DNA from: a virus
Lineage: Duplodnaviria > Heunggongvirae > Uroviricota > Caudoviricetes
Virus record (IMG/VR): IMGVR_UViG_2541047941_000006
Length of the DNA stretch: 23,448 bases
Strand: one strand, 5' to 3'
The notes under the pieces are model-generated. The model ran no database searches. It saw only the letters and a program-made list of their open reading frames with translations, and was not told where the DNA came from. The position numbers and the translations under genes were made by a program. Of the stretch, positions 1-21,671 are shown piece after piece; position 1 is the first letter of the stretch; each line of letters opens with the position of its first letter.

Positions 1-1158
1 ATGCTCACCGTTAAGCAGATTGAAGCAGCAAAGCCGAAAGAAAAACCATACCGCCTTCTCGATGGTAATGGCCTGTACCTTTATGTTCCTGTATCCGGGA
101 AAAAGGTATGGCAGCTTCGCTACAAGATTGACGGTAAGGAGAAAATCCTGACCGTCGGAAAATATCCGCTTATGACTTTGCAGGAAGCAAGGGATAAGGC
201 ATGGACTGCGAGGAAAGACATCTCGGTTGGCATCGATCCGGTAAAGGCGAAAAAGGCTTCGTCTAACAACAATTCATTTAGTGCGATTTACAAGGAATGG
301 TACGAGCACAAGAAGCAAGTCTGGTCAGTAGGCTATGCAACTGAACTTGCCAAAATGTTTGATGACGACATTTTACCCATCATCGGCGGTCTTGAGATTC
401 AGGATATTGAGCCGATGCAACTGCTGGAAGTAATCCGCAGATTTGAAGATCGCGGTGCAATGGAGCGAGCCAACAAAGCCCGCAGAAGATGCGGCGAGGT
501 TTTTCGTTACGCTATTGTCACCGGAAGGGCTAAATATAACCCGGCACCTGACCTTGCAGACGCCATGAAAGGATACCGCAAGAAGAACTTCCCGTTCCTT
601 CCAGCAGACCAGATGCCTGCATTCAACAAAGCACTGGCAACATTTTCAGGAAGTATCGTATCGCTCATTGCGACAAAAGTTTTACGTTATACAGCCCTAA
701 GAACGAAAGAGCTTCGTTCCATGCTATGGAAGAACGTCGATTTTGAAAACAGGATTATCACCATCGACGCCAGTGTGATGAAGGGACGCAAAATTCATGT
801 GGTCCCGATGTCAGACCAGGTGGTTGAACTTCTCACTACGCTAAGCTCAATCACCAAACCAGTCTCAGAGTTTGTTTTTGCCGGGCGCAACGATAAGAAG
901 AAGCCAATCTGCGAGAACGCGGTATTGCTTGTGATCAAACAAATCGGCTATGAAGGTCTGGAAAGCGGTCACGGATTCAGGCATGAATTCAGCACGATTA
1001 TGAACGAGCACGAATGGCCTGCTGACGCTATTGAAGTGCAGCTGGCACATGCCAACGGCGGATCTGTGCGCGGTATTTACAACCATGCTCAGTATCTCGA
1101 TAAGCGCAGAGAAATGATGCAGTGGTGGGCGGATTGGCTTGATGAAAAAGTGGAGTAA
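1..1158 (+). CDS. intS: Tyrosine recombinase / prophage integrase, P4-type (IntS-like, KplE1/CPS-53 family)
   Basis: 385-aa ORF starting at base 1; N-terminal KPKEKPYRLLDGNGLYLYV motif typical of P4-family integrases and a C-terminal catalytic region (HGFRHEF ... RGIYNH, the catalytic Tyr lying in the last motif). Recalled as matching E. coli IntS; paired with a TorI-like excisionase and tRNA-derived att core at the other end of the element. Confidence 0.85.
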   Translation: MLTVKQIEAAKPKEKPYRLLDGNGLYLYVPVSGKKVWQLRYKIDGKEKILTVGKYPLMTLQEARDKAWTARKDISVGIDPVKAKKASSNNNSFSAIYKEWYEHKKQVWSVGYATELAKMFDDDILPIIGGLEIQDIEPMQLLEVIRRFEDRGAMERANKARRRCGEVFRYAIVTGRAKYNPAPDLADAMKGYRKKNFPFLPADQMPAFNKALATFSGSIVSLIATKVLRYTALRTKELRSMLWKNVDFENRIITIDASVMKGRKIHVVPMSDQVVELLTTLSSITKPVSEFVFAGRNDKKKPICENAVLLVIKQIGYEGLESGHGFRHEFSTIMNEHEWPADAIEVQLAHANGGSVRGIYNHAQYLDKRREMMQWWADWLDEKVE

Positions 1159-1861: not shown

Positions 1862-2614
1862 TCAGATTCCCTGGTGAGTAAGAATTTTACTTTCTGAACT
1901 CCTCTGAGAGTATTGACTTGGAGAAACACCAAAATAACGTCTAAATACATAAGTAAAGTATGAGACACTGGCATAACCACAGACCTTAGCTACTTTACTA
2001 ATAGGATAACAACGAGTGCTGAGTAAATATTCAGCCATTTGCATCCTCTCATCAAGTATGATCTTACTGAATGATACCCCCTCTTCTTTCAATTTCATCT
2101 TTAGTAAACTTTCGCTGAGATATAATCTTGATGATATATCCTTAAGACGCCATGATGCAGATAAATCCGTATGAATAATCGTTTTAACTTTAGCCCCTGT
2201 GCTTTTCAAACATCCAAACAGAAATACTCCAAATTGTTTTTCAGAAGAAAATGCAGAGAGACATGTAAAAGCAATAGACTCATCAAAAATTTCTATGTAT
2301 TCAGCACAGTGATTAGCCCAACTAATTAATCCTTTAATTAAACTGAAGTCAGCAAAGTTTATTTTTAAATAAGATGGATATTCCCTACAATCAGAAATAC
2401 CCCTTAAGTTATTAGCTTTCAAATAGCGACTAATAAACTCAGCGCCAAAATCCGCCACTATCACTCTTTCAGGATATGTCAGGAAAAAATCTCTAGAGCT
2501 AGAGTCGACAAGTACAGATGAACCTCTCTCCAGAAACACACTCTCTTTTCCGAAATAAACATCAAAGGACTCCAAAATCAATATAACTGAACATGTAGTT
2601 GCCATATCATCCAC
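1862..2614 (-). CDS. AraC/XylS-family transcriptional regulator (AppY/EnvY-like), low-GC cargo
   Basis: 250-aa ORF; C-terminal double HTH signature (WRLKDISSRLYLSESLLKMKLKEEGVSFSKIILDERMQMAEYLL...KVAKVCGYASVSYFTYVFRRYFGVSPSQY); AT-rich coding and upstream region; flanked by the IS2-like fragment and IS1. Confidence 0.8.
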   Translation of the reverse strand: MDDMATTCSVILILESFDVYFGKESVFLERGSSVLVDSSSRDFFLTYPERVIVADFGAEFISRYLKANNLRGISDCREYPSYLKINFADFSLIKGLISWANHCAEYIEIFDESIAFTCLSAFSSEKQFGVFLFGCLKSTGAKVKTIIHTDLSASWRLKDISSRLYLSESLLKMKLKEEGVSFSKIILDERMQMAEYLLSTRCYPISKVAKVCGYASVSYFTYVFRRYFGVSPSQYSQRSSESKILTHQGI

Positions 2615-2826: not shown

Positions 2827-3330
2827 TTATTGATAGTGTTTTATGTTCAGATAATGCCCGATGACTTTGTCATGCAGCTCCACCGATTTTGAGAACGACA
2901 GCGACTTCCGTCCCAGCCGTGCCAGGTGCTGCCTCAGATTCAGGTTATGCCGCTCAATTCGCTGCGTATATCGCTTGCTGATTACGTGCAGCTTTCCCTT
3001 CAGGCGGGATTCATACAGCGGCCAGCCATCCGTCATCCATATCACCACGTCAAAGGGTGACAGCAGGCTCATAAGACGCCCCAGCGTCGCCATAGTGCGT
3101 TCACCGAATACGTGCGCAACAACCGTCTTCCGGAGACTGTCATACGCGTAAAACAGCCAGCGCTGGCGCGATTTAGCCCCGACATAGCCCCACTGTTCGT
3201 CCATTTCCGCGCAGACGATGACGTCACTGCCCGGCTGTATGCGCGAGGTTACCGACTGCGGCCTGAGTTTTTTAAGTGACGTAAAATCGTGTTGAGGCCA
3301 ACGCCCATAATGCGGGCTGTTGCCCGGCAT
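2827..3330 (-). CDS. insB: IS1 InsB (expressed as InsAB' by -1 frameshift)
   Basis: 167-aa ORF overlapping the insA 3' end in the -1 frame, canonical IS1 arrangement. Confidence 0.85.
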
Positions 3331-3729: not shown

Positions 3730-4188
3730 TTATTTCAGGCATTGCGTCCTGATGTATTCCTGCAGGTAGTTAACCTGCGCGGTTATCTTGTCGATTCCAC
3801 TTCGGAGACGGTAATAATTGAGTTCAGCATCTGCTGTAAGTCCTGGGCTTTCTCCATCGCCCATGCCGCTGGCTCCGGTCGTTGACTTTGCACAGGTGGC
3901 GGCGACTTGCAGGCGCTTACGCCCAGCAGAAACATCAGCACGGAGACTTTCGATAGTCGCGTTAGCATCAGCAAGCTCCTTTGTGTATCTTGCGTCGAGT
4001 TCTGCTACATCACGTTGACGCTTCCGCATGTCAGCGATGGTGGCGTTCGCCTTCTCCAGTTCACTGGCCTTGTTATCGCGCTGCTCTTTGTAGGCGATTG
4101 CGTTATCACGGTAATGATTAACAGCCCATGACAGGCAGACGATGATGCAGATAACCAGAGCATAAATAATCGCGGCGACTCTGCTCAC
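3730..4188 (-). CDS. Rz: Rz inner-membrane spanin (i-spanin)
   Basis: ORF with N-terminal TMD ([28 protein letters not shown]) and coiled-coil-like body, closely resembling lambda Rz. Probable GTG start at 4188 (track ORF starts at TTG 4203); overlaps the endolysin stop. Confidence 0.8.
3783..3974 (-). CDS. Rz1: Rz1 outer-membrane lipoprotein spanin (o-spanin), embedded in Rz +1 frame
   Basis: 63-aa ORF wholly inside Rz; signal peptide with lipobox LLGVSAC followed by a Pro-rich segment ([16 protein letters not shown]), classic Rz1. Confidence 0.7.
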
Positions 4189-4718
4189 TGATCTATCCCC
4201 CAACAGGCTAATGCGCTTTCCTGGTCACGACGAATAACCTGTCCATAGCAGTTATTTGAACGTATGCGGCAATCGCGCCCACCATCTTTTATCCACCAGC
4301 GAATCGCCTCGCATGCACCTTTACGATCACCGGCATTCAGCCGCTTATAAAACGTCGACGGGAAACACTTACCGGGGCCAATGTTATAGGGACAAAATGA
4401 CGCGATACCCGCTTTCTGTGGTTCGGTCAGTGGCACTTTAATATTGCGCTCCACCCATGCCAGCGCCTTATCCCGTTCAATGGCGTTAACCTGGTCGCAT
4501 TTTTCCTTCGACAGTTTCATACCGGGAAAAACGGGTTTTCCATCCACCACCGTGGCACCCCGACAGATGGTCCAGATGCCGGAACCATCGCGGTATGCCG
4601 TTGTGTGGTTACCTTCTTTTTCATCCAGAAACTGGTCGAGAATATCAGGCGCAGGCGCACCGACGGCAATCAGTGCCAGAACGGCAGCCGACAGGCCGTA
4701 TCTGATTTTTGCGTTCAT
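4185..4718 (-). CDS. R: Phage endolysin (lysozyme), probable SAR type, RrrQ-like
   Basis: 177-aa ORF; weakly hydrophobic Ala/Gly-rich N-terminus ([17 protein letters not shown]) ahead of the catalytic domain; sits between the pinholin/ydfR-like genes and Rz. Confidence 0.85.
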
Positions 4719-5770: not shown

Positions 5771-6199
5771 TAAGCTGTGTGACGAAGTAACCACTCTTAA
5801 CAGCATAACCAATTTTTTACGTACGTAAACCACTAAATGATATTTGCGAGAATGCTACCGAGTGTTCAAAACACCACCACAAATACATAAGAAAACCTCA
5901 ACAAATAACCAACAAATAATTTCCAGTGTTATTTTTAGCCGATTTAAATTGAACCTTCAAATTATAGAGCACTTATAAATAACAGCCGTTAATATAAATT
6001 GGCTAATAGATTTATTTTTATTCAGCCAAGAGCTATGAATAGGATTCGATAGAAAAAAGTTCAGATAAAAATAGAGATCTACTTCACAAATCAAACGAGA
6101 AACCAAAACTTACATCTTGAAATAATCACATTGATTAGATGAATATTTATCGCGCAGTGACATCATTTTTTAATAATAGTTCAAAAAAAAGGGCTCACG

Positions 6200-7297
6200 A
6201 TGAAAAAATTAACAGTGGCAATTTCTGCTGTAGCTGCATCAGTACTGATGGCGATGTCTGCTCAGGCAGCTGAAATTTATAATAAAGACAGTAACAAGCT
6301 GGATCTGTACGGGAAAGTTAATGCTAAGCACTACTTCTCCTCTAATGATGCAGATGATGGTGATACTACTTATGCCCGTCTTGGCTTCAAAGGTGAAACC
6401 CAAATCAACGATCAACTGACTGGTTTCGGTCAGTGGGAATATGAATTCAAAGGCAACCGCGCTGAATCTCAAGGTTCCTCCAAAGACAAAACCCGTCTTG
6501 CATTTGCAGGCCTGAAATTCGGTGACTACGGCTCAATCGATTACGGCCGTAACTACGGTGTAGCATACGACATCGGTGCGTGGACTGACGTTCTGCCAGA
6601 ATTCGGTGGCGATACCTGGACCCAAACAGATGTGTTCATGACTGGTCGCACCACTGGTGTTGCAACCTATCGTAACAACGACTTCTTTGGTCTGGTTGAT
6701 GGTCTGAACTTTGCTGCTCAGTACCAAGGCAAAAACGATCGTAGCGATTTCGATAACTACACTGAAGGTAACGGTGATGGCTTCGGTTTCTCTGCTACCT
6801 ATGAATACGAAGGATTCGGTATCGGTGCAACTTATGCGAAATCTGATCGTACCGACACTCAAGTTAATGCAGGGAAAGTTCTTCCTGAAGTATTTGCTTC
6901 CGGTAAAAATGCAGAAGTTTGGGCCGCAGGTCTGAAATATGATGCTAACAACATTTACCTGGCCACTACCTATTCTGAAACCCAGAATATGACTGTATTT
7001 GCTGATCACTTCGTTGCTAATAAAGCCCAAAACTTCGAAGCTGTTGCACAATATCAGTTCGATTTCGGTCTGCGTCCGTCCGTTGCTTACCTGCAATCTA
7101 AAGGTAAGGATCTTGGAGTATGGGGCGATCAGGACTTAGTCAAATATGTTGATGTAGGTGCAACCTATTACTTCAACAAAAATATGTCTACTTTCGTTGA
7201 TTACAAAATCAACCTGCTTGACAAAAATGACTTCACTAAAGCACTCGGTGTAAGCACTGATGACATCGTTGCTGTAGGTCTGGTTTACCAGTTCTAA
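6200..7297 (+). CDS. nmpC: Outer-membrane general porin, prophage-encoded NmpC/Lc/OmpD type (intact)
   Basis: 365-aa ORF with signal peptide ([30 protein letters not shown]), porin motifs ([31 protein letters not shown]) and C-terminal VGLVYQF; lies between Q and the lysis genes on the opposite strand, as nmpC does in DLP12. Confidence 0.85.
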
Positions 7298-14006: not shown

Positions 14007-15080
14007 ATGGAGAACTTAATGGATACTTTAAAATATGAGAAATTCTCTGATTTTGATCACAATGACCCATTTTTTGACTCTTTAAAAAAAGATTATAAAG
14101 AGTTTCCTCTTTGGTTAGAAAAAAAAGCCAGAGAAGGAGAATCAGCTTATGTGCTCTATGATGACAAGCATAAAATCGAAGGTTTTATGTATCTAAAAGA
14201 AAATGATGATGCAAATGACATTAATCCAGCGCTCCCACCAGGACGTCATCTAAAGATAGGAACATTCAAATTTGAATCTAAAGGCACCCTTCGCGGACAA
14301 CGATTTCTAAAAAAAGCGTTTGACCATGCATTTTCATCAAAATCTGATGATATTTATGTTACTGTTTTCGACAAACACGTCCATCTAATAAAACTTTTCC
14401 AAACGTACGGATTTTACATTCATGGTGAAAAAGAAACACATAACGGGAAAGAGTTTGTATATGCGAGGTCTTTGCATGAGCCTTATGGTGATATTTTATT
14501 AGATTACCCTCGAATAATGACATCAAGGGCCAACAAATATTTACTGGCGATTTATCCCGAATATCACACTAGACTATTCCCTGATTCAAAACTTGTAAAT
14601 GAATCACCAGATATTGTCAAAGATATATCCCATGCTAACAGCATTCATAAAATTTACATATGTGGAATGCGTTCTGTGATGGGAATGAAAAGAGGAGATA
14701 TCATTGTCATCTATAGAACCGGAGACAAAAAAGGGCCAGCTCGCTATCGTTCTGTAGCCAGTACATTATGTGTAGTTGAGAGCGTAAAAAATATTTCTGA
14801 ATTTTTAAGCGAAGATAGTTTTGTAGACTATTGTATTCGTTTTAGCGTATTTTCTGAAGATGAACTCAGAAAAATCTATAAAGAACGTCGATACCCTTTC
14901 ATTATAAGATTCACATACAATCTGTCTTTGCCAAAGAGACCCAATCGTGCTATTTTAATAGATCATGTGGGGCTAAATGGTTCGCGTGCATTCCGATGGA
15001 GTCACTTTAAACTCACAAATGAGCAGTTCTTAAAGATCATCGAGTTAGGCAAGATAAATGAAAGTTTTATTATCCATTAA
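14007..15080 (+). CDS. Hypothetical 357-aa protein: N-terminal GNAT-like acyltransferase region fused to a C-terminal PUA-like region (candidate exclusion/defence effector)
   Basis: Long AT-rich ORF directly downstream of cI (rexA position); GNAT-like motifs by eye (GTLRGQRFLKKAFDHAF; LFQTYGFYIHGE); C-terminal segment with PUA/ASCH-like strands (LLAIYPEYHTRLF; KRGDIIVIYRTGD). More likely start is ATG 14019 (GGAG 6 nt upstream). Domain calls are unverified. Confidence 0.7.
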   Translation: MENLMDTLKYEKFSDFDHNDPFFDSLKKDYKEFPLWLEKKAREGESAYVLYDDKHKIEGFMYLKENDDANDINPALPPGRHLKIGTFKFESKGTLRGQRFLKKAFDHAFSSKSDDIYVTVFDKHVHLIKLFQTYGFYIHGEKETHNGKEFVYARSLHEPYGDILLDYPRIMTSRANKYLLAIYPEYHTRLFPDSKLVNESPDIVKDISHANSIHKIYICGMRSVMGMKRGDIIVIYRTGDKKGPARYRSVASTLCVVESVKNISEFLSEDSFVDYCIRFSVFSEDELRKIYKERRYPFIIRFTYNLSLPKRPNRAILIDHVGLNGSRAFRWSHFKLTNEQFLKIIELGKINESFIIH

Positions 15081-15435
15081 GCCTGAGTTTGCAGAAAAAA
15101 TATTGAACGGAACAAAGCGGTTCGAGTTTCGTAAAGGTATATTCAAAAATCCGCAAATTAGCACCGTTGTTATTTATGCCACGATGCCATTAGGTAAAGT
15201 TGTTGGTCAATTCCGTATTGAATCAATACTAAGTGACGAACCGGAATCTCTTTGGAAAAAGACGGAAAAACACGCAGGTATTTCTAAGCAATTTTATGAC
15301 TCATATTATTCAGGTAGAGAAAAGGCCTACGCAATAAAAATTGGTGAAGTGGAAAGATATAAAGAACCAATTCCTATCTCTGCTCTAGGGAGTAATATTA
15401 AGCCACCACAATCATATCTTTACCTACCTGCGTAA
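15058..15435 (+). CDS. ASCH-domain (PUA-like) protein, 125 aa, translationally coupled to the upstream gene
   Basis: N-terminus MKVLLSIKPEFAEKILNGTKRFEFRK matches the ASCH beta1/GxKxxExR signature; start overlaps the upstream gene by 23 nt; AT-rich. Confidence 0.7.
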   Translation: MKVLLSIKPEFAEKILNGTKRFEFRKGIFKNPQISTVVIYATMPLGKVVGQFRIESILSDEPESLWKKTEKHAGISKQFYDSYYSGREKAYAIKIGEVERYKEPIPISALGSNIKPPQSYLYLPA

Positions 15436-19160: not shown

Positions 19161-19458
19161 GTAGAAGGTGTTATCTCGGATGGAAGTAAGCGTATTGCTG
19201 AACTGGAGGCCTGGGTTGAATACACAAGAGCTGCATACGTAAGAGCAAAAGACAAGGGAGATTTGATCAGAGTTATTACCAGCCAACCAACGGGATTTTA
19301 CGCTTACGTACCATGTAATTAGGAATCCTTGAAGTGGCAGCCTAACTGCGGATACACTGAAATGGCGATTTGGTAACATGTTTCGCACAAGGCTGTTACT
19401 ACGCTTAGAGATAATCAGCCATGATTAAACGCTTTGTAAAAAGTAAAAGGAAATTACA

Positions 19459-20073
19459 ATGAAAAAATCAATACTAATTTTAGGGCTTACGTTAATTGTC
19501 TCATCTCAAATACCATCGGCAATGGCAAAAAATGAATCAAAACTATGGGTTGTTGTTGATCGAACGGAAAGACATACCTGCCCTTCAAGTAAATGTGGAG
19601 TGGCTGGGAAACTATTTTTCAGGGAAGGCGTAGATTTTCTAGAAAAAAAAGGTGAATGGGTTCGTATAACTGAGCCATATTCAGCCTCATGTGTTGGAGG
19701 GGAAAGCGAATATATTAAAGAAGGTAATAAATCCTGCACAAGAAAAAATGGAATCGTTAATGGCAAGTTTTCAGAATGGGTTAAACTTAGTGATCTTAGC
19801 AGTGAAAGGCCATCAGATCCTGCTGAAAATGCGAGCGGAGATGATACTTTAATCAAAGGATCTGATGACTACCGTATATACAAAAAAGAGTTTTCTTCGG
19901 CAGCTAGGAAGTTAATAAATGAAGGGGTCTGCACGGAAAGCGATTTTAAGGAAATCGGAGGGTGGATGGCATCAAGCAATAAGGGTGAAAACATCTATTT
20001 CACATATTGCGGAGGAATGACGTTGTCGAACAGAATATACCTAGATGTTAAAAGTGGAAAGACTTTTAGATAA
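19459..20073 (+). CDS. Secreted Cys-containing protein with SH3b-like segments (prophage moron), unknown function
   Basis: 204 aa; signal peptide MKKSILILGLTLIVSSQIPSAMA/KNE; SH3b-like pattern (KLWVVVDRTERHTCPSSKCGVAGKLFFREGVDFLEKKGEWVRIT); AT-rich; RBS AAGGAAA; followed by a terminator. Confidence 0.7.
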   Translation: MKKSILILGLTLIVSSQIPSAMAKNESKLWVVVDRTERHTCPSSKCGVAGKLFFREGVDFLEKKGEWVRITEPYSASCVGGESEYIKEGNKSCTRKNGIVNGKFSEWVKLSDLSSERPSDPAENASGDDTLIKGSDDYRIYKKEFSSAARKLINEGVCTESDFKEIGGWMASSNKGENIYFTYCGGMTLSNRIYLDVKSGKTFR

Positions 20074-20145
20074 TATGATATTACCAATGACAGTATTGAT
20101 TTAATGCCTCCATAGAATTATCTCTAGGAAGTAGGTATAAGAAAA

Positions 20146-20178
20146 GCCCGCACAATTAGCTGCTGCGGGCTTTGTGTT
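20146..20178 (+). terminator. Intrinsic terminator after the secreted-protein gene
   Basis: GCCCGCA-caattagctgc-TGCGGGC hairpin followed by TTTGTGTTATT. Confidence 0.5.
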
Positions 20179-20366
20179 ATTCGCCATATTTTATGAAGCA
20201 AATACGACACTATAGATAATTAAGCGTTGCTGGTTGTCGATTCCTCAATCACTCCTGTGGATGGCTCTCTTCTTGTATGTGCCATTGAAGGGGAATATCG
20301 CGTAAAAAGATACCGGAAGTATCCGCGCCGCCATGATTGTCTTTCTCCTGATGCAGGAAAAGCAGA

Positions 20367-20705
20367 ATGGCTAAATCAGCAACAGAGCACAAAGCCGATC
20401 AGAGAGCCAAGCAAGCATCATCCGGTATGCGTAAGCTGGAGCTTGTACTTGATGCTCAGGAAATTGAAATGCTGGAGCGTAACTGTGCCACGCGTCGCTT
20501 CAGGCGTGCGCCTTGCGAGTTTGGTGAGTACATCGCGTTACTGAGCCGCCAGGATGATGCACGTGTGCGCTGGCGTATAAAATCGATCAGCAGAAAACGT
20601 TGCGGTAAGTGCGGCGAGAGAGTTCCTGTTAATTCATGCCCGTGTAATGGTGACTCACAATGCTGGGTGACCAAAGGCTGGCACGAAACAAAATTAATGA
20701 TATAA
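20367..20705 (+). CDS. Hypothetical protein with C-terminal Cys-rich zinc-ribbon-like motif
   Basis: 112 aa; RBS AGGAAA 6 nt upstream; C-terminal CGKCGERVPVNSCPCNGDSQC; basic N-terminal region; preferred over the overlapping 20227-20544 ORF, which has no RBS and odd composition. Confidence 0.55.
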   Translation: MAKSATEHKADQRAKQASSGMRKLELVLDAQEIEMLERNCATRRFRRAPCEFGEYIALLSRQDDARVRWRIKSISRKRCGKCGERVPVNSCPCNGDSQCWVTKGWHETKLMI

Positions 20706-21470: not shown

Positions 21471-21671
21471 ATGCAACACGAACTACAGCCTGATTCACTG
21501 GTTGATTTGAAATTCATCATGGCTGATACTGGCTTCGGTAAGACCTTCATCTATGACCGGATTAAGTCCGGCGACCTGCCTAAAGCCAAAGTTATCCACG
21601 GGCGAGCAAGATGGTTATATCGTGACCATTGTGAATTCAAAAATAAGCTCTTAAGCCGCGCCAATGGGTAA
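21471..21671 (+). CDS. torI: Excisionase / recombination directionality factor, AlpA-family HTH (TorI-like)
   Basis: 66 aa MQHELQPDSLVDLKFIMADTGFGKTFIYDRIKSGDLPKAKVIHGRARWLYRDHCEFKNKLLSRANG; winged-helix excisionase pattern; last gene before the att core at the end opposite the integrase, as in KplE1. Confidence 0.8.
   Translation: MQHELQPDSLVDLKFIMADTGFGKTFIYDRIKSGDLPKAKVIHGRARWLYRDHCEFKNKLLSRANG

Follow-up and report, generated by a model that had tools for sequence, protein, structure and literature searches.

Among described systems, the closest points of comparison for the locus discussed here are the phage-borne 'morons', a concept owed to Hendrix and colleagues that takes in bor and lom of lambda (reviewed in PMC3594210), together with two small phage proteins of the cell envelope: Spackle (gp61.3) of T4, which is made early, resides in the periplasm and acts as an inhibitor of the tail lysozyme gp5 (PMC7677548), and Llp of T5, a small lipoprotein that is described as blocking FhuA (PMC9586334; 10.64898/2026.03.26.714494). 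Here we have analysed a stretch of Caudoviricetes DNA, 23,448 nucleotides in length (IMG/VR record IMGVR_UViG_2541047941_000006; 'the window' in what follows), in which ~19317-20181 is a moron-type cargo cassette, made up of a leader, a gene and a terminator, sitting in the pL (early-left) arm of a lambdoid prophage that is defective (Table 1). The gene encodes a protein of 204 amino acids (aa), predicted to be exported to the periplasm, where it probably binds peptidoglycan.

The resemblance to bor and lom is one of organisation: in each case a small and compositionally foreign block, present in one and absent from another of two similar phage genomes, encodes an exported envelope protein, carries its own terminator and has spread horizontally among unrelated phages. 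The likeness does not extend to the product, as the 204-aa protein is unrelated to Bor/Iss or Lom/Ail in either sequence or fold, nor to the location, since the cassette lies in the pL arm rather than beside lysis or tail genes, with a promoter that is only a weak candidate.

The junctions of the inserted block are discrete. The flanks are homologous to other lambdoid elements as far as ~19290 and again from ~20224 onwards, and in a plasmid-borne relative (L015, on plasmid NZ_CP117972) the two flanking remnants correspond, respectively, to the 3' end of a 208-aa gene that is intact there (6001-6079) and to a stretch within an intact 129-aa S24 peptidase (UmuD-like) gene (7150-7253), with the 204-aa gene absent between them. 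As the arrangement in L015 is intact, we conclude that the block at ~19291-20223 has taken the place of the intergenic sequence together with the 5' portion of the S24 gene, leaving a scar of ~100 bp; the remnants are labelled in RefSeq as an ead/Ea22-like pseudogene and as a partial 'DNA repair protein'. The block is also lower in G+C content (GC), at 37.8%, than either its left (49.4%) or its right (43.7%) flank, as the initial annotation had noted, with the coding sequence (CDS) itself at 38.0% (29.8% at third codon positions, GC3). A terminator belonging to the gene, likewise proposed there, is recovered as a prediction: a G+C-rich hairpin, AAAGCCCGCA...UGCGGGCUUU, followed by GUGUUAUU (U-tract UUUGUGUUAUU), for which just 2 of 200 shuffled sequences fold equally well, and which a simple scan had missed because the loop exceeds the length that the scan permits.

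That the block is acquired cargo, as had been suggested, is borne out not only by its absence from L015 and by the occurrence of relatives at unrelated sites, but also by a second copy of the same leader and CDS in a P1/P7-like phage-plasmid of E. fergusonii, where it lies 3' of humD. The two copies share 84.9% identity in DNA and 90% in protein, and their homology spans 19317-20075, thus taking in the 142-bp leader along with the CDS, with a similar terminator stem (GCCCGCA.AATTAGC, followed by a T-run) located further downstream in the P1-like copy (L144); a bidirectional hairpin is also found 3' of the gene in a Pseudomonas prophage copy (L127). Comparing the E. coli and P1-like coding sequences gives proportions of non-synonymous (pN) and synonymous (pS) differences of 0.054 and 0.474, and the resulting dN/dS ratio of 0.075 indicates strong purifying selection on the protein. 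The leader is 81% identical (19% of positions differ), against 53% at synonymous sites of the CDS, and being the more conserved of the two is constrained in its own right. Neither the leader nor the 3' untranslated region (UTR) contains an RNA element that matches an Rfam family at E<=1, and inspection of the leader by eye produced no convincing LexA, CpxR or sigma-E box; a GTAAA-N2-GTAAA repeat close to the ribosome-binding site was considered as a CpxR box and rejected, its spacing being wrong. We also observe that an S24/UmuD-like (humD-type) gene adjoins the cassette in both settings, as a downstream fragment in the lambdoid module and as an intact upstream gene (L144 3681-4073) in the P1-like element, and recombination through this common gene may have carried the cassette between lambdoid and P1-like phages.

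An open reading frame (ORF) of 204 codons at 38% GC would be expected by chance ~0.04 times across the window (our own arithmetic), and hundreds of homologues, together with the dN/dS of 0.075, establish this one as a real gene; the PHROGs family phrog_8310 ('unknown function') covers the protein from end to end (E 1.8e-136). Its N-terminus reads M-KK-SILILGLTLIVSS-QIPSAMA and continues, after the predicted signal peptidase I site, with KNE: two lysines precede a 13-residue hydrophobic core, for which the Kyte-Doolittle (11-residue) maximum is 2.8 at residues 4-14, compared to no more than 0.97 in the remainder of the protein, and alanine occupies both the -3 and -1 positions, giving the n-h-c organisation of a signal peptide with small residues at the cut. 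The AlphaFold confidence score (pLDDT) falls below 50 at residues 1-6 and 19-24. On this evidence the protein is predicted to be exported by the Sec pathway, with a mature form of ~181 aa after removal of the signal. A lipoprotein reading was rejected, as the match to LPAM_1 is sub-threshold (E 0.067) and the first cysteine is residue 41; there is no cysteine in the signal region and it is therefore not a lipobox. Signal or lipobox N-termini are found throughout the family, however, with an N-terminal hydrophobic segment in 214 of 271 relatives that bear the C-terminal motif, 45 of those 214 being also lipobox-like.

The mature protein is composed of one SH3b domain plus a separate, small, C-terminal α+β domain. 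The initial description, of an exported, stand-alone, Cys-rich protein with SH3b-like segments, is thus supported by the signal peptide and by six conserved cysteines, and correct as to the presence of an SH3b domain, but not as to its number: there is a single SH3b domain, and the C-terminal 77 residues form a different domain without a described relative. The SH3b β-barrel fold is present, but the match to Pfam SH3_3 (PF08239) does not reach the gathering threshold (residues 40-72 score 16.2 bits, E 0.012, where 27 bits are required), although several relatives do have a precomputed PF08239 match. When set beside the SH3b cell-wall binders of endolysins, lysostaphin and NlpC/P60 proteins, the 204-aa protein thus differs in falling below the Pfam threshold, and also in having a conserved insertion of ~20 residues with four cysteines, in having no catalytic domain and in being, by prediction, periplasmic in a Gram-negative host. 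The cysteines (41, 46, 78, 93, 158 and 184) are each at least 90% conserved in the alignment, with C158 and C184 invariant; the insertion and C41/C46/C78/C93 are jointly missing from its two most distant relatives.

The C-terminal domain (C-domain) carries the motifs SDD[YF], GGW.KS, YFTYCGG and N[RK]IYL in addition to the C158/C184 pair. When the last 83 residues are modelled alone, the prediction is confident (pLDDT 91.8) and shows a sheet of three strands against which three helices pack, one of them short and the other two longer. A search of BFVD with this model gave no match at E<=0.001, and none of 25 members examined has a Pfam family in this region. The best structural neighbours, which are weak, are small α+β rolls of the cystatin/NTF2-like type, including extracellular subdomain 2 of MapZ (2nda) and the NTF2-like accessory domains of Pgp2/Csd6. 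MapZ subdomain 2 and the Pgp2 accessory domain reportedly bind peptidoglycan, which we take as a hint only. In sequence searches of the PDB, profiles built from the family hit only designed TIM barrels, with E-values down to 8e-9; these were rejected as chance, since they arise from summing four copies of one short helix motif, with almost no single stretch passing alone.

Table 1. Coordinates of the cassette, of the domains that its gene encodes and of other features in the window.
Feature	Position	Strand	Basis or remark
CDS of 204-aa exported protein, stop codon included	19459..20073	+	ATG start; phrog_8310 match, homologues, dN/dS
Shine-Dalgarno AAGGA	19447..19451	+	7 nt 5' of ATG; conserved in alignment A3
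Sec-type signal peptide, residues 1-23, predicted signal peptidase I cut after AMA and before K	19459..19527	+	Hydrophobicity, -3/-1 rule, low pLDDT
SH3b domain, residues 28-115, with ~20-residue Cys-bearing insertion (C41, C46, C78, C93)	19540..19803	+	
Conserved linker R117-P118-x-D120-P121-A...G	19804..19839	+	(Nearly) invariant columns in alignment A1
C-terminal α+β domain, residues 128-204, no described relative	19840..20070	+	
Conserved 142-bp leader, presumed promoter and 5' UTR	19317..19458	+	Homology to E. fergusonii P1-like copy begins at 19317
Candidate weak sigma-70 promoter TTGAAG-N18-TACACT, 8/12 matches	19329..19358	+	Both hexamers invariant in alignment A3
Intrinsic-terminator-like hairpin with U-tract, predicted	20142..20181	+	-20.7 kcal/mol, z -2.7
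3' remnant of upstream ea22-like/208-aa gene, last ancestral lambdoid stretch	19212..19290	+	87% identical to L015 6001-6079
Internal S24/UmuD-like gene fragment, right-edge scar	20224..20329	+	85% identical to L015 7150-7253
Tyrosine integrase	1-1158		
AraC-family regulator, in 33% GC DNA	1862-2614	-	
IS1	2827-3330		
GH24 lysozyme	4185-4718		

Within E. coli the gene is found in 133 of 5426 complete genomes, always as part of the same lambdoid module, which, with the gene, is also carried by an isolated viable phage (Chlobot) and by a 43-kb circular phage-like replicon. Beyond E. coli, a full-length profile search of 1.84 billion representative proteins returned 1539 proteins at E<=1e-3, with 170 reaching E<=1e-30; at least 1500 clusters at 50% identity match the profile. 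Full-length relatives with 45-69% identity occur in Pseudomonas, Aeromonas, Shewanella, Rhodobacterales, Rhizobiales and other groups, and 51 IMG/VR viral contigs carry relatives. One apparent homologue of 78% identity (P0035, from L153, a Logan contig of SRR18740011) was rejected, as it represents a C-to-T bisulfite-converted assembly of the same E. coli locus; we record it as a protein-database artefact that mimics divergence.

Most relatives with more than 55% identity are located on phages, a phage-plasmid or integrase islands, and the settings differ widely. The copy in an Aeromonas prophage sits in an accessory region, beside a restriction-modification system and a toxin-antitoxin pair; that in a Pseudomonas prophage lies between lysis genes and terminase; and that in an alphaproteobacterial phage runs antisense within the head genes. 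It had been put forward at the outset that homologues which are phage structural proteins would count against the cargo interpretation: none is structural, and those found within head genes are there only in antisense. In small Pseudomonas islands the relative is found directly 3' of the integrase, and we observe a recurrent layout (L003, L007-L011) of tyrosine integrase, 204-aa homologue and then 4-5 conserved ORFs (~208-236, 105, 130, 337 and 175 aa), the products of which have no match in Pfam or PADLOC; in PHROGs, two of the eight proteins have a match, which is to a 'transcriptional regulator' family.

All of the architectures in which the family occurs are extracytoplasmic. A signal peptide or lipobox may be followed directly by SH3b and C-domain, as in the E. 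coli protein; a zinc ribbon and transmembrane segment may precede the pair; a signal peptide may lead into an N-terminal domain and coiled coil ahead of SH3b and C-domain; or ankyrin repeats or extra SH3b copies may be added N-terminally. The C-domain also stands alone, as an exported protein or lipoprotein of ~100 aa, in Marinobacter, Methylobacillus, Agrobacterium, Rhizobium, Sphingomonas and viral contigs, the Agrobacterium genes lying in prophage-like regions. Since it is found by itself in this manner, we suggest that the C-domain would be the working part of the protein, and SH3b a targeting accessory. Finally, no partner gene is conserved across 77 loci from GTDB representative genomes, in which ORFs were called and clustered by all-against-all BLAST; the only recurrence is that of within-genus synteny in Vibrio and of the Pseudomonas integrase. 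The lack of a conserved partner therefore fits a stand-alone binder or inhibitor better than one half of a two-gene system.

Synthesising these observations, we propose a speculative model for how the cassette might act. Following export, signal peptidase I would cleave the protein, which would remain in the periplasm, where DsbA could form up to three disulfides. The SH3b domain would then dock the protein on peptidoglycan, such that the C-domain might engage a second ligand in the envelope, either peptidoglycan itself or an enzyme acting on it. The net effect would be to shield the sacculus, or else to block an external wall-degrading enzyme, be that the tail lysin of a superinfecting phage (and with it lysis from without) or a muramidase or amidase that is secreted or injected. 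The terminator would serve to stop transcription initiated in the cassette from entering the downstream excisionase gene, a safeguard that any transcription of the cassette in lysogens would call for. Taken as a whole, wall protection or exclusion is the explanation that we favour, albeit tentatively and at something short of even confidence, with less again for any specific target.

The model has a number of precedents in logic. Like Spackle, the 204-aa protein is small, phage-encoded and, by prediction, periplasmic, with a signal peptide and a place in an early transcription unit; what we propose to be shared is the blocking of a wall-degrading enzyme at the sacculus, and not ancestry. The stand-alone C-domain relatives, as small disulfide-containing lipoproteins or exported proteins on prophages, recall the superinfection-exclusion lipoproteins Llp of T5 and Cor of phi80 and N15 (PMC9586334). 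Sequence similarity to these was not detected, however, the E. coli protein is not a lipoprotein, and the Llp/Cor target FhuA is an outer-membrane protein, whereas the SH3b domain points to the wall. In our view the bacterial lysozyme inhibitors provide a further parallel, again in proposed logic rather than ancestry. The inhibitors Ivy, PliC/MliC, PliG and PliI are encoded by stand-alone genes without a partner, as is the 204-aa protein; they exist as soluble periplasmic and lipoprotein versions of one domain, as the C-domain does; and they are small and patchily distributed in Proteobacteria, as is the 204-aa family, the latter being in addition Cys-rich with predicted disulfides.

Several observations weigh against wall protection or exclusion. 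A search of PADLOC-DB 2.0 with the 204-aa protein gave no defence-protein family at E<=10, and in the literature we found no binding, localisation, expression or phenotype data for any member of the family; indeed, we found no paper that deals with the family itself, with phrog_8310 or with SH3b morons of Gram-negative bacteria. No consensus sigma-70 promoter lies upstream on the coding strand, in this window or in the four further contexts scanned, at a scan threshold of 9/12, under which the candidate listed in Table 1 falls. Lysogenic conversion, as initially proposed, would require the repressed prophage to express the gene; as the gene is co-oriented with pL, expression confined to lytic growth is equally possible. 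IS1 has inserted within the gene in several independent E. coli genomes (H4, H5, H75, H95, H108 and H110, where the match is split across ~1.4 kb), so that the gene is dispensable where interrupted; in ATCC 8739 (L146 2691-3388) IS1 instead lies ~110 bp 5' of the gene, within the conserved leader, and the AT-rich cassette appears to be a hotspot for this element. Lastly, the copies in Vibrio (~30% identity) occupy core chromosomal positions, in surroundings that are syntenic across ten species, a pattern that suggests a housekeeping function at the envelope, perhaps one unrelated to phages.

The strongest competitor follows from the location of the gene, which lies between exo and the excisionase gene in the same orientation as pL, so that N-antiterminated early transcripts from pL will cover it in lytic growth. 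On this account it is a delayed-early accessory of the lytic cycle, silent in the lysogen, that serves to remodel or stabilise the wall before lysis, to tune the phage's own GH24 endolysin or to exclude superinfecting phage during the latent period. It shares its orientation with gam-bet-exo and the excisionase gene, no terminator intervenes upstream, and a consensus promoter was not found; relatives lie near GH24 lysozyme and spanin genes in two other phages (L127 and L138), and the window prophage carries a GH24 lysozyme too. Against this, the constrained leader has moved with the CDS into the P1-like plasmid, where pL is absent; the gene has its own predicted terminator within an operon; one copy (L133) lies antisense to late genes, and must therefore be transcribed on its own; and the gene has stayed intact although the prophage around it is defective and lacks head and tail genes. 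We consider this explanation possible but unlikely.

The synteny in Vibrio, taken with an alphaproteobacterial copy that lies between metW and pheT, again in a core context, suggests a different role, as a housekeeping adaptor of the envelope that plays no part in conflict and serves as a scaffold or tether binding to peptidoglycan, with lipoprotein and transmembrane variants anchored to the outer or inner membrane, and with phage copies that either confer a general robustness of the envelope (to serum, bile or osmotic stress, in the manner of Bor) or simply hitch-hike. Variants with lipoboxes, transmembrane anchors, coiled coils and extra SH3b copies would suit such a role, as would the weak resemblance of the C-domain to MapZ subdomain 2 and Pgp2, with their reported binding of peptidoglycan. 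The position of the gene is not conserved outside Vibrio, however, the closer relatives are for the most part those on mobile elements, and strong purifying selection on a mobile copy argues against pure hitch-hiking; overall we judge this reading to be rather unlikely.

It is less probable still that the protein is an orphan immunity factor, spread by mobile elements, in which the C-domain neutralises a toxin acting in the periplasm, such as an amidase or muramidase of a type VI secretion system (T6SS) or a colicin M- or pesticin-like bacteriocin. A small protein that is, by prediction, periplasmic and disulfide-bonded, that comes in soluble and lipoprotein forms and that travels on mobile elements would be well suited to the task, and one Pseudomonas island copy does adjoin pyocin S and immunity loci. 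Saying this, an effector-like neighbour is conserved in none of the 77 genome loci, no toxin domain can be recognised in the partner genes of the Pseudomonas islands, no fold match was found among solved immunity proteins, and the Vibrio copies are syntenic core genes without a T6SS context. As for a secreted factor for virulence, adhesion or host interaction, acting on a eukaryotic host or surface, there is a signal peptide and one relative is fused to ankyrin repeats, but we regard this as highly improbable, given that no dedicated outer-membrane secretion system is linked to the gene, that we know of no general route across the outer membrane of E. coli for a Sec substrate lacking such a system, that the E. 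coli carriers are of origins as diverse as pond water, sludge, poultry and humans, and that relatives come mainly from free-living marine and soil Proteobacteria.

Turning to the remainder of the window, its order is tyrosine integrase, AraC-type regulator, IS1, GH24 lysozyme, porin, CI-like repressor, a candidate defence pair, gam-bet-exo, a TorI-type excisionase gene (21471-21671) and chromosomal cscB; no head or tail genes occur in its 23,448 nucleotides, and as integrase, AraC, IS1 and GH24 run on without them we take the prophage to be a cryptic remnant. The porin gene (6200-7297, + strand; Pfam Porin_1, E 1e-156) has its start in a low-GC patch and is likely to be an NmpC/Lc-type conversion porin, that is, a second envelope-altering cargo in the same prophage. 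Just 3' of the CI-like repressor gene, which in lambda is the place of rexAB, a patch of 33-36% GC (14007-15435, + strand) contains overlapping ORFs of 357 and 125 aa that match the PADLOC candidate pair PDC-M11A (E 2e-133) and PDC-M11B (E 7e-52), the second with an ASCH domain. Immediately beyond the cassette, a 112-aa ORF (20367-20705, + strand) with a C-terminal Cys cluster, CGKCGERVPVNSCPCNGDSQC, is conserved 3' of it in the E. coli lambdoid module; it has no match in Pfam or PADLOC, and in some genomes is annotated with an internal stop.

Morons encoding envelope proteins are already a known route by which prophages alter host surfaces and exclude other phages. What is new here is the protein family, which falls into none of the families of Pfam, NCBIfam, PADLOC or the PDB. 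Its conservation is strong, its members are extracytoplasmic in every case, and unrelated mobile elements have captured it time and again. Should the protein be only a structural binder of peptidoglycan, then the finding would be an ordinary one. If, on the other hand, the C-domain binds or inhibits a wall-active enzyme, this would add a mechanism of exclusion or protection at the level of the wall for Gram-negative bacteria, and would provide a function for over a thousand 'hypothetical' proteins. We speculate further, and with no great expectation of being right, that the C-domain, as a disulfide-stapled module which SH3b would here tether to peptidoglycan, could be the founding member of an undescribed but widespread family of periplasmic blocker domains, carried on mobile elements and neutralising the wall-degrading enzymes of incoming phages or competitors; if true, lambdoid, P1-like and Pseudomonas/Aeromonas elements would share a new class of wall-level superinfection exclusion or immunity.

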